59,785 nt of DNA from an uncultured Clostridia bacterium (GCA_947589835.1 CANQCT010000002.1:1-59785), one strand, 5' to 3'; positions 12,416-23,560 are shown, counted from the stretch's first letter. Program-made: numbers and translations. Notes: a model not told the origin generated them from the sequence alone.

Positions 12416-13135
12416 TTATAATAGCAATAAGTATTTTCCATTTTTTATTTTTTGTATTACATTTAGTTTAATAAATTCTTTGAAAGCTTTGTTAACAGTA
12501 TATATTGAAATTTTTAAGGTAGTTGCGATTTCGTTTTGTGTTTTTAGTATAAACTTTTCTTCATTTGAAATTTGTAGTAAATACGCTATAATTTTATATT
12601 GATTTGCTTTATTGCTTTGTAATAAGTTTAAAAATTTTTTTATTTCTGATAATGAAATGTTGTTTTCATTTTCTTTCATTTTTATTTTTTTGAAGGCATT
12701 GTATGAATATTTATGGGCTGTTTTATTTGATTTTCTTGAAATCCATTGTAATTCAAAATGTGAGTTTTCTTTATTTAATTTTGTTTTTACTTTGTGATAA
12801 GATTTTTTTATATCACTTAATAATTTTATATTGTTATTAAATAATTTTGTATTATTATTTTTTTTAAATATTGGTATTGCAACATTGCAATCTGTTCTTA
12901 TATAAAATTTTTGAGCTATATTACTTTTTATTAAATTAGAGTTTATTAAATTTAGTACTTGAAATATTGCAAATATTTCACATTCTGTTGAATTTTCTAA
13001 TTTAATTTTGCACTTTTTGCCAAATGCTTTAATAATTTTGTTTTCTTGTGTAATAACAATAGCATAAGTTCCTATTTTAGTTTTATCATCAAAACTTGCA
13101 TCTGTGTAGATTTTGAATGCTTTATTATAGTCCAT
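12416..13135 (-). CDS. RNase H-like (RVT_3/RNase HI fold) domain fused to a C-terminal winged-helix DNA-binding domain
   Basis: The N-terminal KIYTDASFDD..GTYAIVI..STECEIFAI..IRTDCN..NKTAHKYS matches the D-E-D-(H) RNase H pattern. The C-terminal ..TQNEIATTLKISIYTVNKAFKEFIKLNVIQKIKNGKYLL looks like wHTH. Start placed at MDYNK (ggaag SD 8 nt upstream). Confidence 0.6.
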   Translation of the reverse strand: MDYNKAFKIYTDASFDDKTKIGTYAIVITQENKIIKAFGKKCKIKLENSTECEIFAIFQVLNLINSNLIKSNIAQKFYIRTDCNVAIPIFKKNNNTKLFNNNIKLLSDIKKSYHKVKTKLNKENSHFELQWISRKSNKTAHKYSYNAFKKIKMKENENNISLSEIKKFLNLLQSNKANQYKIIAYLLQISNEEKFILKTQNEIATTLKISIYTVNKAFKEFIKLNVIQKIKNGKYLLLL

Positions 13136-13323
13136 TAACATCGCTTCCTTTTTTAAAACTTTTGTTCGATTATAAAACATTATTATTTACTTGTCAATAC
13201 TTTTTTACTATTTAATTTATTTTATTCCTTAATTTATTGCAAAATATTTACCAATTAGTCTCTTTGAACTTTTTAAAATAAATGTTATATATTACTTATA
13301 AATAAATATGGAGGGGAAAAAAT

Positions 13324-13975: not shown

Positions 13976-16219
13976 ATGAATTTTGAACAATGGAATGGTT
14001 TTAATAAATTAGGTGAATGGACTAAAGAAATAGACGTTAGAAGCTTTATTCAAGCAAATTACACGCCTTATGAAGGAGATAGTTCATTTTTAGTAGGTCC
14101 AACTGAAAAAACTTCTAAGTTATGGAACGAGGTTTTGGACCTTTATAAAAAAGAAAAAGAAAACAATAATGTTTTAGATGTAGATACGAAAACACCATCT
14201 GGAATTAATCGTTTTGCTCCTGGATATATTGACAAAGATTTAGAGGAAATTGTTGGTTTTCAAACAGATAAGCCTTTAAAAAGAGCAATTATGCCAAATG
14301 GTGGTATTAGAATAGTAGAAAAATCTTGTGAAAGCTATGGGTATGAAATAGATAAAGATATTTCTCATATTTATCATAATTTAAGAAGAACTCATAATGA
14401 CGGTGTTTTTTCAGTTTATACACCTGAAATAAGAGCTGCTAGAAGTTCACATTTAATTACAGGTCTTCCAGATGGATACGGTCGTGGAAGAATTATTGGT
14501 GATTATAGAAGAGTTGCTTTATATGGTGTGGATGTTTTAATTGCATATAAACAAGATGAATTTGCTACTACAGATTCTGATGAAATGACAGATGAAATTA
14601 TTCGTATGCGAGAGGAAATTCACGACCAAATAGTAGCTTTAAATGAATTAAAAGAAATGGCTGCAAGTTATGGTTTTGATATTTCAAATCCTGCAAAAAA
14701 TGCCAAAGAGGCTTTTCAATGGTTATATTTTGGCTATTTAGGTGCTATTAAAGATCAAAATGGTGCTGCTATGAGCTTAGGTAGAACTTCTACATTTTTA
14801 GATATATATATTGAAAGAGATATTAAAAATGGTATTTTAACAGAAGAATTTGCTCAAGAATTAGTGGATCAGTTCGTTATGAAATTAAGAATGGTTAGAT
14901 TTTTGCGTGCTCCAGAATACAATGAATTATTTAGCGGAGACCCTGTTTGGGTTACAGAAAGCATTGGCGGTATGGGTATTGATGGTAGAACTTTAGTTAC
15001 TAAAAATTCTTTTAGAATTCTTAATACTTTAGTTAACTTAGGTCCTGCACCAGAGCCAAATTTAACTGTATTATGGTCTAAAAATTTACCAGAAGGATTT
15101 AAAAAATTCTGTGCTGAAATTTCTATAAAAACATCTTCTATTCAATATGAAAATGATGATTTAATGAGGGCAACTTTAGGAGATGATTATGCTATTGCTT
15201 GCTGTGTTTCTGCTATGAAGGTTGGCAAGCAGATGCAATTTTTTGGTGCAAGAGCAAATTTAGCAAAAGCACTTTTATACGCTATTAATGGCGGTAGAGA
15301 TGAAAAAACTGGAAAACAAGTTACTCCACGTTTTGAGCCTATTACTTCTGAATATTTAGATTATGATGAAGTTATGGCTAAGTTTGATAATATGATGGAA
15401 TATTTAGCAAAAATTTATATTAAAGCTCTTAATATGATTCATTATATGCATGATAAATATTCTTATGAGGCTCTAGAAATGGCTTTGCATGATTGGCAAA
15501 GGGATGTTTTAAGAACTATGGCTTGTGGAATTGCTGGTTTATCTGTTGTTGTGGATTCTTTATCTGCTATAAAATACGCAAAAGTAAAAGTTATACGCGA
15601 TGATACAGGCTTAGCAGTTAATTATGAAGTTGAAGGAGATTTTCCTAAATACGGAAATGATGATGACAGAGTTGATGATATTGCAGTTAATTTAATAAAA
15701 ACTTTTATGAAAAAATTAGAAAAACACCATACTTATAGAAATTCAAGAGCTACCCTTTCTATTTTAACTATTACTTCTAATGTAGTGTATGGTAAAAATA
15801 CAGGTAATACTCCTGATGGAAGAAAAGATGGTGAACCTTTTGGACCAGGTGCTAATCCTCTTCATGGCAGAGATACTAACGGAGCTTTGGCAGTTATGAA
15901 TACTATTGCAAAACTTCCTTACGAATATTCAGAAGATGGTATTTCTTATACTTTTTCTATAACACCTGCTACTTTAGGTAAGGATGATGCTTCAAAAGTA
16001 AATAATTTAGTTACTATGTTAGATGGCTTTTTTACTCAAACCGGACATCATATTAATGTTAATGTTTTTGATAGGCAATTGCTATTAGATGCAATGGATC
16101 ATCCTGAAAAGTATCCACAGCTTACTATTCGTGTTTCTGGCTATGCTGTTAACTTTACCAAATTAACTAGAGAACAACAGCTAGACGTTATTAATAGAAC
16201 AATTCACGAGTCGATTTAG
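13976..16219 (+). CDS. pflB: Formate C-acetyltransferase (pyruvate formate-lyase)
   Basis: 747 aa with active-site CCVSAM and glycyl-radical motif [11 protein letters not shown] near the C-terminus. Confidence 0.97.
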
Positions 16220-16222
16220 GAA

Positions 16223-16519
16223 TTGTCGCTTTGGAGACGTTTCTTCACGCGACAACTTGTAGTTTTTGGGACAGATGTTTCTTTTTTATGTCAAGCTAAA
16301 GTATAATACATCTTGTGCCTTGCTTGTCGCAGCCAATCCAATGATTGGTAGGCTGCTCCACTCGCGCTCCGCACCAATGCTTGGTGCTCTCGCTTAATCG
16401 CTGCGCGGCAACTGCGATTGTATTATACTTTAGTTTGACAAATATATAAAATTTTATATTTAAAAATGTGTCCCCAAGGCGACAAGTTGTCGCGTGAAGA
16501 AACGTCACAAAAGCGACAG
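16223..16519. repeat. ~300 nt GC-rich nested inverted repeat (candidate structured RNA or MITE) in the pflB-pflA spacer
   Basis: Outer arms at 16224-16260 and 16481-16518 are about 37 nt and nearly perfectly complementary. Second-tier arms are ctaaagtataataca / tgtattatactttag. The GC-rich core has hairpins gcagcc..ggctgc and gcaccaa-tgc-ttggtgc. Confidence 0.8.
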
Positions 16520-16530
16520 AAAGGTAAAAA

Positions 16531-17250
16531 ATGGAAAGTTTAAAAGCTAGAATTCACTCATTTGAATCTTTTGGAACTGTTGACGGGCCTGGAATAAGGT
16601 TCGTAATATTTATGCAAGGATGTAGCTTAAAATGTAAATATTGTCATAATAGAGATACATGGGATTTATGTGGTGGTACAGAGTATTCATTAGAAGAAGT
16701 GTTAGAAAAAATAGAAAAATATAAAAACTATTTTATGCCGTCAGGTGGTGGTGTTACTGTTAGTGGTGGCGAGCCTTTGTTGCAATTGGGTTTTGTTACT
16801 GAACTTTTTAACATTTTAAAAGAAAAAAATATTCATACTGCTGTTGATACTTCTGGTAATTTTTTTATTACTGAGGATATTAAAAAATTAGTTGATTTAA
16901 CTGATTTGTTTTTGTTGGATATTAAATGTATTAATGATGAAATTTGTAAAAGTTTAACTGGTGTTTCTAATAAGCTGGAACTTAACTTTGCTAGATATTT
17001 AAGTAGTATAAAAAAAGATATGTGGATTAGGCAAGTTATAGTTCCGGGAATAACTGATAAGGAAGAAGATTTGCTTAAATTAAGGGAGTTTATTAATTCT
17101 TTAGATAATGTTCGAAATGTAGAGTTTTTGCCTTATCATGATATGGGTCGCTATAAGTGGGAAAACTTAGGGCTAAAGTATCCATTAGATGGTATTAAAC
17201 CAGCTAATATAGATGATGTTAAAAGGGCAAGAAAAATTGTTTTAGAATAA
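16531..17250 (+). CDS. pflA: Pyruvate formate-lyase activating enzyme (radical SAM)
   Basis: 239 aa. It has the GPGIRFVIFMQGCSLKCKYCHN radical-SAM CxxxCxxC motif and lies directly downstream of pflB. Confidence 0.95.
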   Translation: MESLKARIHSFESFGTVDGPGIRFVIFMQGCSLKCKYCHNRDTWDLCGGTEYSLEEVLEKIEKYKNYFMPSGGGVTVSGGEPLLQLGFVTELFNILKEKNIHTAVDTSGNFFITEDIKKLVDLTDLFLLDIKCINDEICKSLTGVSNKLELNFARYLSSIKKDMWIRQVIVPGITDKEEDLLKLREFINSLDNVRNVEFLPYHDMGRYKWENLGLKYPLDGIKPANIDDVKRARKIVLE

Positions 17251-17329
17251 TAAGAAAATCGTTTGCTTCGCAAACAACTGCCACGTGCTTCGCACGGGCA
17301 AACATAGGTAGATTAACCTTGTTTTCTAG
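17249..17329 (+). repeat. GC-rich ~80 nt palindromic extragenic element, family B, copy 2
   Basis: aataagaaaatcgtttgcttcgcaaacaactgccacgtgcttcgcacgggcaaacataggtagattaaccttgttttctag. This is the reverse complement of 3304-3384 with a few substitutions. Confidence 0.75.
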
Positions 17330-17365
17330 GAAAATGCATTTTAAAAATGCATTTTCCTAGAAAAT

Positions 17366-17410
17366 AAAAAAGCCTAGCAATGTTAGTTAACATATCGCTA
17401 GGCTTTTTTT
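17366..17410. terminator. Bidirectional terminator (pflA / small minus-strand ORF)
   Basis: agcctagc...gctaggct stem flanked by A-run and T-run. It is preceded by a perfect 18-bp palindrome at 17325-17361. Confidence 0.65.
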
Positions 17411-17413
17411 GTG

Positions 17414-17626
17414 TTAAGCAGTCTTTCTCACTTTCTTGTGATGGCGGACCGCCCTCCACTTGCCGTTAGGCAGCTGCTCGACAAATCCTTCGATTTCTAC
17501 CCAGCCACTGCTGGCGGGGTGTGCATCGCGGATTGCTTGCAGGGTTTTAAGGGCATCGCCCTTAGTTTCCTTTTGGTACGGAGACTCAAATATCTCCTCG
17601 TAGTCTTTTTCATTGTTGCTATACAT
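17414..17626 (-). CDS. Small hypothetical protein with strongly atypical (high) GC content
   Basis: 70 aa from MYSNNEKDYEE.. with the SD ggaaggag. Codon usage (GCC, CTG, CGC, GGC) is unlike the rest of the window. No family recognised. Confidence 0.55.
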   Translation of the reverse strand: MYSNNEKDYEEIFESPYQKETKGDALKTLQAIRDAHPASSGWVEIEGFVEQLPNGKWRAVRHHKKVRKTA

Positions 17627-17760
17627 TTTAAAATCTCCTTCCAAAAAATAATATAATTAGGTATAATTATATTATACTACTTTTACGGGTTAAAATCAAA
17701 TTAAGCTTTTGTTTAAATAACAATAAAAAAGGTTATTTGAACAAAAGCTTTGTATTTTTT

Positions 17761-18604
17761 TTACTCTTTTACTAGTTTTCTTAGCCCAAATGTTATAAAG
17801 TAAATTGCTCCTGAAATTAATACAATCATTGGTCCTGTAGGTATATTCCAGTAATAAGATATAATTAAACCAGCTATTCCAGAAAATAAAGAAAATATTA
17901 CCGAAAATAAATGATAGCTTCTCATACTTTTGGCAATGTTTCTACTAGATGCAGCTGGTAAAATAAGTAATGAATTAATTAATAATATTCCTATCCAGCG
18001 AATTGATATCATAACAATAATTGCAATTAATACTACAAAAACATTATCTATTAATTTTGTGTTAACTCCCCTACTTTTTGCAAGTGCCTCGTTTACACTA
18101 AGCACATTTAATTTGTTAAATGTAAAATACCAAAATACGAATACTGCAATAAATGCTAAAAATAAGTATAATATTTCTGTGTTGCTAATGCTTAGTATGT
18201 CGCCTACAAGATAGCTAGAATATTTATTAAAGTTTCCGCCGTGTGGCAAGCATTGCTAAGCCTAAAGCAATTGCGATTGATGAAAATACACTAATAATTG
18301 TATCTGCTCCATAAGTGGTTTTGTTTTTTACAAAATTTAATAATAATGCAAAAACAACTGCAAAGAAAATCATAGAAATATTCATATTAGTTATTCCAAG
18401 TACCATTCCAATTGCAATTCCTGTTAATGCTGAATGACCTAATGCATCTGAGAAAAATGCCATTTTGTTATTTACAATCATAGTTCCTAATATTGCAAAA
18501 ATTGGTGTTGATAGAATTATGGCAATTAGTGCATTTTTCATAAATGTATATTGCATAAAATCAAATGGTAAAATTGTTTCTAATAAATTATATATTAATT
18601 CCAT
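17761..18604 (-). CDS. znuB: Metal (Zn/Mn) ABC transporter permease, ZnuB-like; frame continues only after +1 shift at CGG (18239-18241)
   Basis: Two ORFs (18227-18619 and 17761-18249) together make a colinear ABC-3 family permease. The 0-frame reads ACA CGG CGG AAA CTT TAA. The +1 frame reads ACA c GGC GGA AAC TTT.. (..LAT-GGNFNKYSSYLVGDIL..). Confidence 0.85.
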
Positions 18605-19337
18605 TGTTCTCACTTCCAAAACGTTTTTTAAATTCTAAGCTATTAAATACCTCTTCTGGAGTGCCTTCTTTAATAACTTCTTTATCTAATAAAATTACTT
18701 TATCTGCATATTTTTTAGCTAATTCAAAATCGTGTGATACTAGTAAAATAGACATATCATAGTTTGTTTTTAGGTTATTTACTAGTTCATAAAAATCTCT
18801 TGTGCCATTTTTATCTATGCCTGAAACAGGTTCATCTAATATTAATAGGTTAGGAGCTGGTTTTGTAGCAATTGCTAATAATACTCTTTGAAGCTCTCCA
18901 CCTGATAGATCTCCTATGCTTTTATCTATTAATTTTTCTGCTCCAAATATTTTTAGCTGTTCTTTTATTTCTTGATATATTTTTTTGTCCTTTTTTAAAA
19001 ATACTGGTACATAGCAAATGCATGATGCAAATAAGTCATATACTGTGGTTGGCATATGCTTTTCTATATTAATTGATTGTGGTACATAGCCAATTTTTAT
19101 TCTTTTGGTAATATTTTCTTTTATGTCCATAAAAGTTATGTTTCCTGTGTGTTCTACTTCTCCTAAAATAGCTTTTAGTAATGTAGATTTACCGGCACCA
19201 TTTCTACCAATAATTACGGTTAACTCTCCACAGTGAATGTGAATATTTACATTTTTTAATACAACTTCTTTTCCAAACTTCACACTTATATTATTTATTT
19301 TCGTGCAGTGAAGTCCACAAGCTACTGATTTTTCCAT
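18588..19337 (-). CDS. znuC: Metal ABC transporter ATP-binding protein, ZnuC-like
   Basis: Walker A GRNGAGKST, signature LSGGELQR, Walker B LLILDEP. Confidence 0.9.
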   Translation of the reverse strand: MEKSVACGLHCTKINNISVKFGKEVVLKNVNIHIHCGELTVIIGRNGAGKSTLLKAILGEVEHTGNITFMDIKENITKRIKIGYVPQSINIEKHMPTTVYDLFASCICYVPVFLKKDKKIYQEIKEQLKIFGAEKLIDKSIGDLSGGELQRVLLAIATKPAPNLLILDEPVSGIDKNGTRDFYELVNNLKTNYDMSILLVSHDFELAKKYADKVILLDKEVIKEGTPEEVFNSLEFKKRFGSENNGINI

Positions 19338-22350: not shown

Positions 22351-23239
22351 TTATTCATTTGTTTGAAGCTTTTTTATTTCTTCTTCTGATAAGCCTGTTA
22401 CATTCATAATAACGTCTATTTCTATTTTTCTTTCTAGCATTTTCTTTGCAATCTCTAATTTACCGCTCTAATTTACCTTCTAGCTTTCCATCTCGCTTTG
22501 CTTCATATAATAATTGTTCTTGGTCCATTCTTTCTAGTTCTGCTTTTAATGCCATTCTCCTTAATATATCATCTTGACTTATTTTTTCTAATTCATCTTT
22601 TGCTTCTTTTATATTCTCATTGTTTTCCATAATTTTAGCCACCTCCTTATTTTCAGGGTTTTCTAGAAACATCATCCATTGAAGTACTTCATTTTGTTTG
22701 TTATTTTCGTATTCTTTTATAGCCTTTGGTAGTTCAATTATATCAATTTGTAAATATGGAGTCAATAGTTTAGTTAAATATTCTTCTTCTCGTATTTGCC
22801 ATTTCGTATGGCTTTTTGTTATTTCTTTAAAATCTTCTATTTCATCATCTAATATTATTATACTTATTGTCTTTTTTAAACAACTATATTTATTTCCTAT
22901 TTGTAAATTTGCTGCATACATTTTTGACCAATAGTATAAAAATCTTTCTAACATTTTTTCATGTGAACTTAGCTGTATTTCTATATCACATTCTATGTTA
23001 TCATTTATTACTGCCCTTAAGTCTAGTCTGCCATTTTTATCTTCTGTATTGTCATTTAATAAATCTTTGCTTTTGTCTAATTCTAGGCTATGTACTTTTA
23101 TATTTAGTATGTCTTCTATTAATGCCTTAGTTATACTTTCTTTTCCCCTTGTAAATAACGCTTGAAATACTACATCATTTTTTGGTTGTAATATTCCATT
23201 TTCTTCTTTTGTTTCTTCTGTTAATTGTTTTTTTGTCAT
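22351..23239 (-). CDS. Rpn-family recombination-promoting nuclease / PD-(D/E)XK putative transposase; C-terminus reached only by +1 shift at CGG (22463-22465)
   Basis: The N-terminal KNDVVFQALF..LDLRAV..IECDIEIQL is typical of Rpn/YhgA-like proteins. The 0-frame ends GKLE-CGG-TAA. The +1 frame continues G-KLEIAKKMLERKIEIDVIMNVTGLSEEEIKKLQTNE*, the usual family C-terminal helix-turn-helix tail. Confidence 0.8.
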
Positions 23240-23560
23240 AATTTGTTTTCCTTCCTTTCGCATATTGCATAAAAACTGAATAATATTTTTGGGTCTTAAA
23301 ATATTACTTGGTTTTTTATGCTTTTTTTAAATTTTATATTATTAGCTAGAAGGCTTGTTTTTTTATAGTGCTTTTATAATTTGCTTTTAATTCTTTTTTA
23401 ATATTTTTATTTGGATTTTTAATATTAAGATATACTAAATTATTTTTGATTTTAATATTAAGATATACCTAAATCACTTTTGATTTTTTAAATATTTTAA
23501 ATTATTTTAATAACTAAGTAGCCTATAAATTTTCATAAATTGACTTTAATTTTAATTTAA

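Follow-up and report, generated by a model that had tools for sequence, protein, structure and literature searches.

The pflB-pflA locus and its surroundings

The window analysed here is a 59,785-nt stretch of DNA from an uncultured Clostridia bacterium. Its + strand encodes pflB (13976-16219), a pyruvate formate-lyase of 747 aa with Pfam matches to PFL-like (E = 2e-223) and Gly_radical, followed by pflA (16531-17250), the 239-aa PFL-activating radical SAM enzyme with matches to Radical_SAM and Fer4_12. The spacer between the 2 genes is 311 nt and contains a composite repeat element of 296 bp (16223-16518) that begins TTGTCGC and ends GCGACA, its limits being drawn from its inverted repeats, from its fold score, and from the points where metagenome contigs diverge. 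The pflB stop codon, TAG at 16217-16219, lies 3 nt upstream of the element, and the pflA ribosome-binding site, read from the sequence as AAAGG at 16520-16524 on the + strand, starts 2 nt past its last base. An earlier note on this DNA had described a GC-rich, multi-tier inverted repeat between pflB and pflA, and that is what is found, with both genes now confirmed by Pfam.

SipL, YunB, YabG and ribosomal proteins are also encoded in the window, the closest PflA relatives are MAGs labelled uncultured Clostridia, and 31-mers of the region have matches only in rabbit-gut and related "gut metagenome" runs. On these grounds we take the host sequence to be the chromosome of an uncultured, low-GC, spore-forming Clostridia lineage. 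Two ENA metagenome contigs carry the same PflA protein together with an identical element, and represent independent assemblies of the species.

No sigma-70-like promoter was found on the + strand between pflB and pflA, and the sole terminator-like site in the interval is a weak 5-bp stem. The big hairpin formed by the element was considered as an intrinsic terminator, and this was ruled out because the T-run is absent after the hairpin. Judged from the sequence, co-transcription of the element with pflB and pflA is plausible.

Several features of the neighborhood deserve a record of their own. Upstream of pflB, the - strand encodes a 254-aa protein (12416-13180) with an RNase H-like N-terminal domain and a RepL/HTH-like C-terminal domain; it is conserved beside an HTH_3 regulator, with a homolog at 4285-5004 of L009, one of the relatives compared below. 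In one strain of the relative with 93% PflA identity (L008, 212-2213), genes for a Mob_Pre relaxase and an HTH_36 protein lie about 3 kb upstream of pflB and are missing at that place in L006, which looks like a small mobilisable element near pfl. Just past the pflA stop codon, at 17257-17367, are 3 tight hairpins, 2 of them with TTCG loops (GTTTGC-TTCG-GCAAAC and a CACGTGC-TTCG-GCACG-like form) and the third a 20-bp perfect AT-rich palindrome, TTTTCTAGGAAAATGCATTTT/AAAATGCATTTTCCTAGAAAA, that is a source of spurious miRNA and rox1 matches in Rfam. Downstream of pflA, a second GC-rich island (17251-17700, 46-58% GC) includes a 70-aa ORF on the - strand (17414-17623, MYSNNEKDYEEIF...HHKKVRKTA) with its own promoter-like and terminator-like sites and no Pfam or NCBIfam match. 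A homologous block is found at about 8345-8700 of L012, a relative with 85% PflA identity, and is missing in L009 and L006, the pflA and ABC-3 genes of L006 being 5 nt apart; by its appearance, the island is a small mobile gene cassette occupying a convergent intergenic hot spot. Two overlapping ORFs on the - strand, 17761-18249 and 18227-18619, of 162 and 130 aa, make up a split ABC-3 (ZnuB-like) permease gene. This gene is split also in L006 (162 and 125 aa), and L012 has a single intact gene of 280 aa. The split is a conserved frameshift, which may represent either a pseudogene or programmed frameshifting.

Anatomy of the element

The outer arms of the element, 16224-16280 and 16462-16518, are 57 nt each and 86% complementary. 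Arms of about 37 nt and nearly perfect had been claimed for them, which holds for the outermost 37 nt (35/37 complementary, 94.6%), but the arms are longer than that. Each arm can also fold on itself as had been noticed, with TTGTCGC at 16223 pairing with GCGACAA at 16249 on the left, and GCGACAA at 16479 pairing with TTGTCGC at 16487 on the right. The second tier that had been pointed out consists of the inner arms 16278-16310 and 16419-16451, 33 nt long and 82% complementary. The element folds with an energy of -141.3 kcal/mol on the + strand (z = -13.7), with 0 of 100 shuffles as good, and of -133.5 kcal/mol on the - strand (z = -12.4), with no shuffle equaling it.

GC makes up 27.6% of the window as a whole but 42.6% of the element and 57.4% of its core, so the block is indeed far richer in GC than its surroundings, though the genome figure of about 25% given in the earlier note is below the value measured for the window. 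Scanning by 108-nt segments, 50% GC is reached at just one other place, 17400-17600. The element is present as a single copy in the 60 kb, a 20-mer common to both of its arms has an expected chance count of 0 there, and 6 of the 9 TGTCGC/GCGACA hexamers in the window fall inside the element.

The outer arms are made of a 34-nt unit, TGTCGC-N5-GGGAC-GTTTCTTCAC-GCGACA-N3, which begins with TGTCGC and has an internal stem of 6 bp and a loop of about 19 nt. Where one unit adjoins the next, the junction is the palindrome GCGACA-N3-TGTCGC, a perfect 6-3-6. In the window, a single unit together with a half unit accounts exactly for each arm, and the two sides of the hairpin mirror one another. On the left, these are the full unit TGTCGC-N6-GACGTTTCTTCACGCGACA (16224-16254, + strand), recognized by regular expression and by blast against the units in L003 and L009 discussed below, and the half unit TGTAGT-TTTTG-GGACAGATGTTT (16258-16280, + strand), which is the inner end of the outer-arm module as marked by the divergence of solo-arm contigs at 16278-16280. 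On the right, unit comparison identifies the half unit TGTCGC-CTTG-GGGACACATTTTT (16462-16484) and the full unit TGTCGC-TTTTGT-GACGTTTCTTCACGCGACA (16488-16518), both on the - strand.

At the apex of the outer hairpin sits an inner module (16281-16461), delimited by spacer comparison and by arm-less core contigs, and consisting of AT-rich linkers, a 22-nt inverted repeat, and a GC-rich core. The left arm of the inverted repeat, TGTCAAGCTAAAGTATAATACA (16289-16310, + strand), is 21/22 complementary to the right arm, TGTATTATACTTTAGTTTGACA (16419-16440, + strand), in which a TTGACA (16433-16438) points outward. Facing into the core from the - strand is a promoter-like site, TTTATA-17-TATAAT (16422-16450), which is a consensus match only, at 10/12 positions. 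The core has 108 nt (16311-16418), with the top metagenome depth at 16313-16372. All 3 of the hairpins previously proposed for it are present, hairpin 1 as GCAGCC-AAT-CCAAT-G-ATTGG-TA-GGCTGC (16329-16356), seen in both sequence and fold, hairpin 2 as GCACCAA-TGC-TTGGTGC (16371-16387), and hairpin 3 as AATCGC-N12-GCGATT (16396-16419), which holds the weak terminator-like stem at 16404-16416. The longest open frame over the core, of 73 aa, has no relative among 5.8 billion predicted proteins.

The same site in relatives

Comparison of the pflB-pflA intervals of the closest PflA relatives finds the site in 4 states. In L012 and L013, whose PflA is 85% identical, the spacer is 23 nt with no element. 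The earlier note had called the block inserted and had suggested looking for relatives with an empty spacer, and L012 is such a relative. In L006, L007 and L008 (93% identical), the spacer is 66 nt and contains a minimal hairpin of 2 facing half units, in the form TTGTCGC-ctaat-GGACATATGC-aagctttaa-GCATATGTC-actaaa-GCGACAG, where half unit, 9-nt loop and inverted half unit together occupy 53 nt. In L009, L010 and L011 (92% identical), the spacer is 169 nt, and 2 units plus a half unit face a half unit plus 1 unit, with no core; the apex there reads GGGACAGATGTTT-AATAAG-ATGTGTCCC. The window, with its 311 nt, has a unit and a half unit per side and 181 extra bases (16281-16461) at the apex, which are the inner module, missing from that apex in L009 and L006.

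All 3 occupied sites end with GCGACAG right before the pflA ribosome-binding site, the junction in L006 and L009 being GCGACAG-(A/G)AAGG. A relative with 88% identity that is found in the same metagenome samples has a 34-nt spacer with TGTAGC-TTTTT-GGGGG, a decayed half unit, and other related pfl loci in those samples have short spacers. No direct repeat that could be a target-site duplication is seen at the ends of the element in the window, L006 or L009, the empty site of L012 being too diverged for base-by-base alignment. From the 4-state comparison, we conclude that the outer hairpin is ancestral to the 3 species and that its unit number changes fast, and that the core is an extra module at the hairpin tip, either inserted in the lineage of the window or lost in the other 2.

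These spacers bear directly on a proposal of the earlier note, that the pflB:pflA ratio is set by the element through processing or stability, taken here to mean a dedicated cis-acting pfl RNA under selection for that purpose. Its place inside the operon and directly before the pflA ribosome-binding site would suit such a role, as would the very stable hairpin with its sense-strand G.U bias and the identity of the element between independent assemblies of the species. However, relatives with 85-93% PflA identity have no element, or the 53-nt minimal hairpin, or arms only, from which it follows that the core is dispensable for pfl function, and in L012 pfl does without the element altogether. 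The same modules are, moreover, found at unrelated loci, as described in the next section. Since close relatives do without the core or without everything, the proposal is not supported, and we regard it as very unlikely.

Dispersal of the 2 modules

A scan of a genome collection with an arm 20-mer gave one real match, L003, from the uncultured Clostridia MAG Lapin-022 bin28; L003 and L009 come from one MAG. A second match, in a Polyangium MAG (L004), was dismissed as chance. In L003 the arm units sit between a priA-like ORF and def, where a degenerate partial unit precedes 2 tandem 34-nt units of the form TGTCGC-N5-GGGAC-GTTTCTT(C/T)AC-GCGACA-N3, with a terminal half unit TGTCGC-TTCT-GGGACACATGTTT. 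Throughout the approximately 145 kb of clade sequence examined, the motif TGTCGC-N5-GGGAC is confined to these elements.

On the 3' side of the arm units, L003 has an AT-rich stretch (1484-1625) containing 3 direct repeats of about 26-28 nt that end with ACATGTGAAA. After the direct repeats is a lone unit-like motif, ACGACAAATGTCGT-TTTAGGGA, which adjoins the def ribosome-binding site. It is possible that the stretch represents another type of inner module within this repeat system.

For a wider view, Logan contigs from 5 rabbit-gut or gut runs were aligned to the region. The points where contigs branch off into unrelated AT-rich flanks fall exactly at the ends of the element, at 16221-16224 (left) and 16518 or 16522 (right). 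At least 8 different flanks are seen on the left and 3 on the right; one is the reverse complement of the ribosome-binding site and start codon of another gene. Arms and core are found in these contigs each alone and together. The arm-only contigs diverge at 16278-16280, which is the same boundary as at the L009 apex. The arm-less core contigs have their left boundary at 16294-16298, or at 16317 where the upstream inverted repeat has diverged (AAAGTATATTACATCGTTTG), and other composite copies carry variant arm-core junctions such as GGGACACATGTTTAAATATAAAAC-TTTATGTCAAGC. The element is a composite of 2 repeat modules, both of which occur at other loci, and the outer one of which has been inherited at the pfl site.

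Read depth gives a similar picture. In run X4 the pfl flanks have a depth of 5-7, rising to 24-46 over the arms and 81-145 over the core segment 16313-16372, and runs X1 and X5 have a similar pattern. Compared with the pfl flanks, the element has 5-25 times the depth, a figure that may include other species. Segments identical to the window have just 1-5 times the flank depth, so the family consists of diverged members and not of many identical copies.

The search for other copies that the earlier note had suggested is answered by the arm units in the priA-like/def spacer of another MAG and by the many flanks in the metagenomes. Among the 3 roles it had listed, that of a MITE with 37-bp terminal inverted repeats fits best. 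At 296 bp the element is small, it is non-coding, and its terminal inverted repeats have 57 nt and 86% complementarity. It departs from a plain MITE, however, in that its arms are arrays of 34-nt units whose number differs between species at this site, its GC-rich core is a separate module occurring with and without arms, and its copies are diverged rather than identical. What the note had named as pointing to a plain MITE, namely many dispersed identical copies with target-site duplications, has come out in large part, because the copies are dispersed, but they are diverged and no duplication is seen.

The regular spacing of the units could also suggest a binding-site array for a DNA- or RNA-binding protein, acting as operator or sponge, with the GGA loops available to a CsrA-like protein. 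GCGACA-N3-TGTCGC recurs every 34 bp, which is about 3 helical turns, with perfect 6-3-6 junctions, and 6 TGTCGC/GCGACA hexamers are packed into 296 bp. The unit count differs, however, between sister species at one locus, and the copies stand in unrelated intergenic contexts. We know of no regulator that recognises such a motif, and we consider the binding-site array very unlikely.

Searches for known families and for a mobilising enzyme

The earlier note did not recognize the element as any named RNA family, and Rfam agrees, with 0 matches at gathering level in the whole window; searches of 1.7 kb and of 201 nt at E ≤ 10 likewise gave no credible match. The best Rfam score in the core is to c-di-GMP-II, at 16.4 bits versus a threshold of 53.5. 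Matches to mir-9457, rox1 and similar families were set aside because they belong to a separate hairpin downstream of pflA, at 17319-17367. ARAGORN found no tRNA or tmRNA, and a retron ncRNA was dismissed as no reverse transcriptase is encoded nearby.

Three probes (the arm 20-mer, a 22-mer from the core, and a degenerate unit) found nothing in viral contigs, and blastn in distant mode against plasmids and phages gave nothing beyond a 35-nt AT-rich chance match. A JGI metagenome scan with a core 21-mer had a lone match, to the high-GC contig L005, which was dismissed as chance. The element was also compared with the consensus sites for Rex, FNR/CRP, Spo0A (TGTCGAA), parS (TGTTNCACGTGAAACA), dif/Xer and the integron attC. 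All of these match partially at best, and they were rejected on that account and because such sites are incompatible with multi-copy dispersal and variable unit number. Our literature search found no paper on MITE-type intergenic hairpins in Clostridia.

As for an enzyme, no candidate transposase linked to the element was found in the window, a RAYT gene is absent among the window ORFs checked, and no IS with the ends of the element is present in the window or the compared loci. The sole transposase-like gene seen in the window encodes an Rpn-family PD-(D/E)XK recombination-promoting nuclease/putative transposase at 22460-23263 on the - strand (PF12784, E = 1.7e-34; TIGR01784), a gene whose link to the element is not evident.

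Is the core more than a passenger?

Hairpin 2 (16371-16387) is hypervariable. Six versions of it were read from loose contig ends or reconstructed from linked differences: GC-ACCAA-TGC-TTGGT-GC, GC-ACCA-TGC-TGGT-GC, GC-ACCT-TGC-AGGT-GC, GC-ACCT-TAC-AGGT-GC, GC-TCCC-TTT-GGGA-GC, and GC-TACCT-TAC-AGGTA-GC. Every one folds as a perfect stem with a 3-nt loop, a pattern that looks like that of a functional RNA or DNA hairpin. Next to it, the core is nearly invariant at 16349-16372, the exception being one X5 contig with 16353 C>T and one inserted T. Over 16313-16372 there are few substitutions, all of them in hairpin 1 and in a minority of contigs.

The arms have a bias of their own. In the predicted folds, G.U pairs number 6 on the + strand versus 0 on the - strand for the window, and 9 versus 0 for L009; put as arm mismatches for the 2 combined, there are 8 of the G.U type versus 1 of the A.C type on the mRNA-sense strand. 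The minimal element of L006 has the opposite bias, on 2 pairs. The bias toward G.U on the sense strand is suggestive in that it fits selection on a sense RNA hairpin, and mutation bias could be an alternative source of the asymmetry.

These patterns raise the question of whether the core, together with the short inverted repeat around it, might encode a mobile structured small RNA or serve as a structured signal at the DNA or RNA level, having a function of its own and landing preferentially in the tip of the outer hairpin. The GC-richness of the core in a 27.6% GC genome would be in keeping with that, as would the fact that its little-substituted part, 16313-16372, is also the deepest. A TATAAT or TATATT box is kept just upstream of the core in diverged, arm-less copies, the promoter-like site on the minus strand faces the core, and several independent composite copies hold the core at the apex of the arms. 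The 6 perfectly paired versions of hairpin 2 carry less weight than they might, as template-switch repair alone can keep small palindromes perfect in the absence of selection, and the variants of hairpin 1 mostly break pairs instead of compensating, only 16353 C>T keeping a pair by changing G-C to G.U. A clear terminator was not found, Rfam has no match on the 201 nt even at E ≤ 10, and the core alone folds about equally on the 2 strands (-34.7 versus -39.5 kcal/mol).

On balance, we consider the reading as a mobile RNA gene or signal unlikely, and give about the same low probability to the more general view of the core as a structured module, RNA or DNA, that has a function and prefers the hairpin tip. 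A more specific form, in which the inner module (16281-16461) is an undescribed mobile unit with a structured GC-rich RNA or ssDNA whose hypervariable hairpin always stays paired, homing to the apical loop of REP-like hairpins, is somewhat less likely again. If this last form were true, the composite would be a two-layer, parasite-on-parasite arrangement, and the core would have a biochemical activity of its own; it might be a guide, a ribozyme, or an RNA that recruits a protein.

Proposed origin and consequences

The element is probably not a dedicated pfl regulator but a member of a modular family of repeats dispersed in uncultured rabbit-gut Clostridia. It is best read as a repeat of the MITE/REPIN/BOX kind, composite and non-autonomous, which would be co-transcribed with pfl. 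In full, we think it probable that the block is 2 nested non-coding interspersed repeat modules, which are non-autonomous mobile DNA and a passenger in the pfl operon.

Under this reading, the outer module, in which 34-nt units and a terminal half unit face an inverted set so as to make a long hairpin, would have settled between pflB and pflA in an ancestor shared with the species that have 92-93% PflA identity to the window. Its unit number would afterward have gone up and down, which is the general behavior of tandem repeat arrays. The inner module, a 22-nt inverted repeat around the 108-nt core, is located exactly at the hairpin tip, and would either have been inserted there or have been lost in the sisters. 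For movement in trans, both modules would presumably depend on an enzyme whose gene is elsewhere in the genome.

The element would be transcribed within the pflB-pflA mRNA, where by analogy with other repeats its stem of about 90 bp might be a target of RNase III, a barrier to 3' exonuclease, or both. The stem could then uncouple the transcript levels of pflB and pflA, which would be a side effect and not the reason for the element. In other words, the pflB:pflA ratio could shift as a by-product if the stem behaves as an RNase III substrate or a 3'-exonuclease barrier, in the manner of Correia, ERIC and REP elements. A side effect on pfl mRNA is plausible.

Comparison with known repeat systems

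REPINs are inverted REP doublets forming hairpins in Enterobacteria and Pseudomonas (Bertels & Rainey 2011, PMC3116915; PMC3337134). The element resembles the REP, BIME and REPIN repeats in having short extragenic units that occur singly, in tandem, or as inverted doublets giving a long hairpin in ssDNA or mRNA. Like them, it is positioned between genes of an operon and apparently co-transcribed, and its cluster make-up varies among relatives; REP-type repeats show no obvious target-site duplication, and none is seen at the ends of the element. The inverted-doublet layout of REPINs is that of the minimal hairpin of L006, with longer versions in L009 and the window. In contrast, there is no sequence similarity. 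The 34-nt unit here has a stem of 6 bp closing a loop of about 19 nt, while REP is a tight, imperfect GC-rich palindrome whose conserved 5' tetranucleotide, GTAG, is recognised by the RAYT tyrosine transposase. GTAG occurs here only within the degenerate half unit (16259-16262). The element also differs in belonging to a low-GC Clostridia host and in having a second module of 181 bp at its hairpin tip. REPIN systems are furthermore defined by having this transposase as their partner, a Y1 enzyme with a single-copy gene that has REPs on its flanks; the window ORFs checked include no such gene.

BOX elements of Streptococcus pneumoniae have the composition boxA-boxBn-boxC (Croucher et al. 2011, PMC3049150). 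They are like the element in architecture only, as modular composite repeats in a Firmicute with terminal modules that pair, a stable RNA fold predicted on co-transcription, and an internal tandem module in variable number that changes between strains at a given locus. The variable units of the element, however, belong to the pairing arms and are mirrored, and its center is a GC-rich structured core rather than a boxB array.

The Correia (NEMIS) elements of Neisseria form an mRNA hairpin that is cut by RNase III, and the ERIC elements of Enterobacteria change mRNA stability; effects involving RNase III and RNase E have been reviewed (PMC3049150, PMC3184786). Both resemble the element in being 100-300 bp with long terminal inverted repeats and inserted within transcription units, some of them with promoter hexamers. 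Correia repeats, on the other hand, are 26 bp long and come with an IHF site and a duplicated TA target, and the present element shows none of these. The nesting has a parallel in insertion sequences of the IS1397 type, which insert specifically into the loops of REP/BIME palindromes, such that a mobile element lies in the tip of the hairpin of another repeat, as the inner module does within the outer arms. The difference is that the inner module is only 181 bp, without a transposase gene.

Interspersed hairpin repeats such as REP/BIME, REPIN, BOX, Correia and ERIC are well studied in Proteobacteria and streptococci, and to our knowledge are barely described in uncultured gut Clostridia. The pfl site offers a natural series in one place, from no element to a minimal hairpin, an arms-only array, and arms with core, which shows how such elements grow and nest, and which is a ready-made test of the effect of a 90-bp intercistronic stem on a two-gene operon. 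For annotation, the implication is that GC-rich structured blocks in AT-rich genomes are not to be taken as locus-specific regulatory RNAs until their dispersal has been checked. The conserved core, with its compensating hypervariable hairpin, is the only piece that could exceed selfish DNA. As it shares no sequence with the REP consensus, lacks the REP hallmark, and is like BOX by architecture alone, the element is placed in no named family; it represents a new repeat family of a known kind, with an unusual nested layout.
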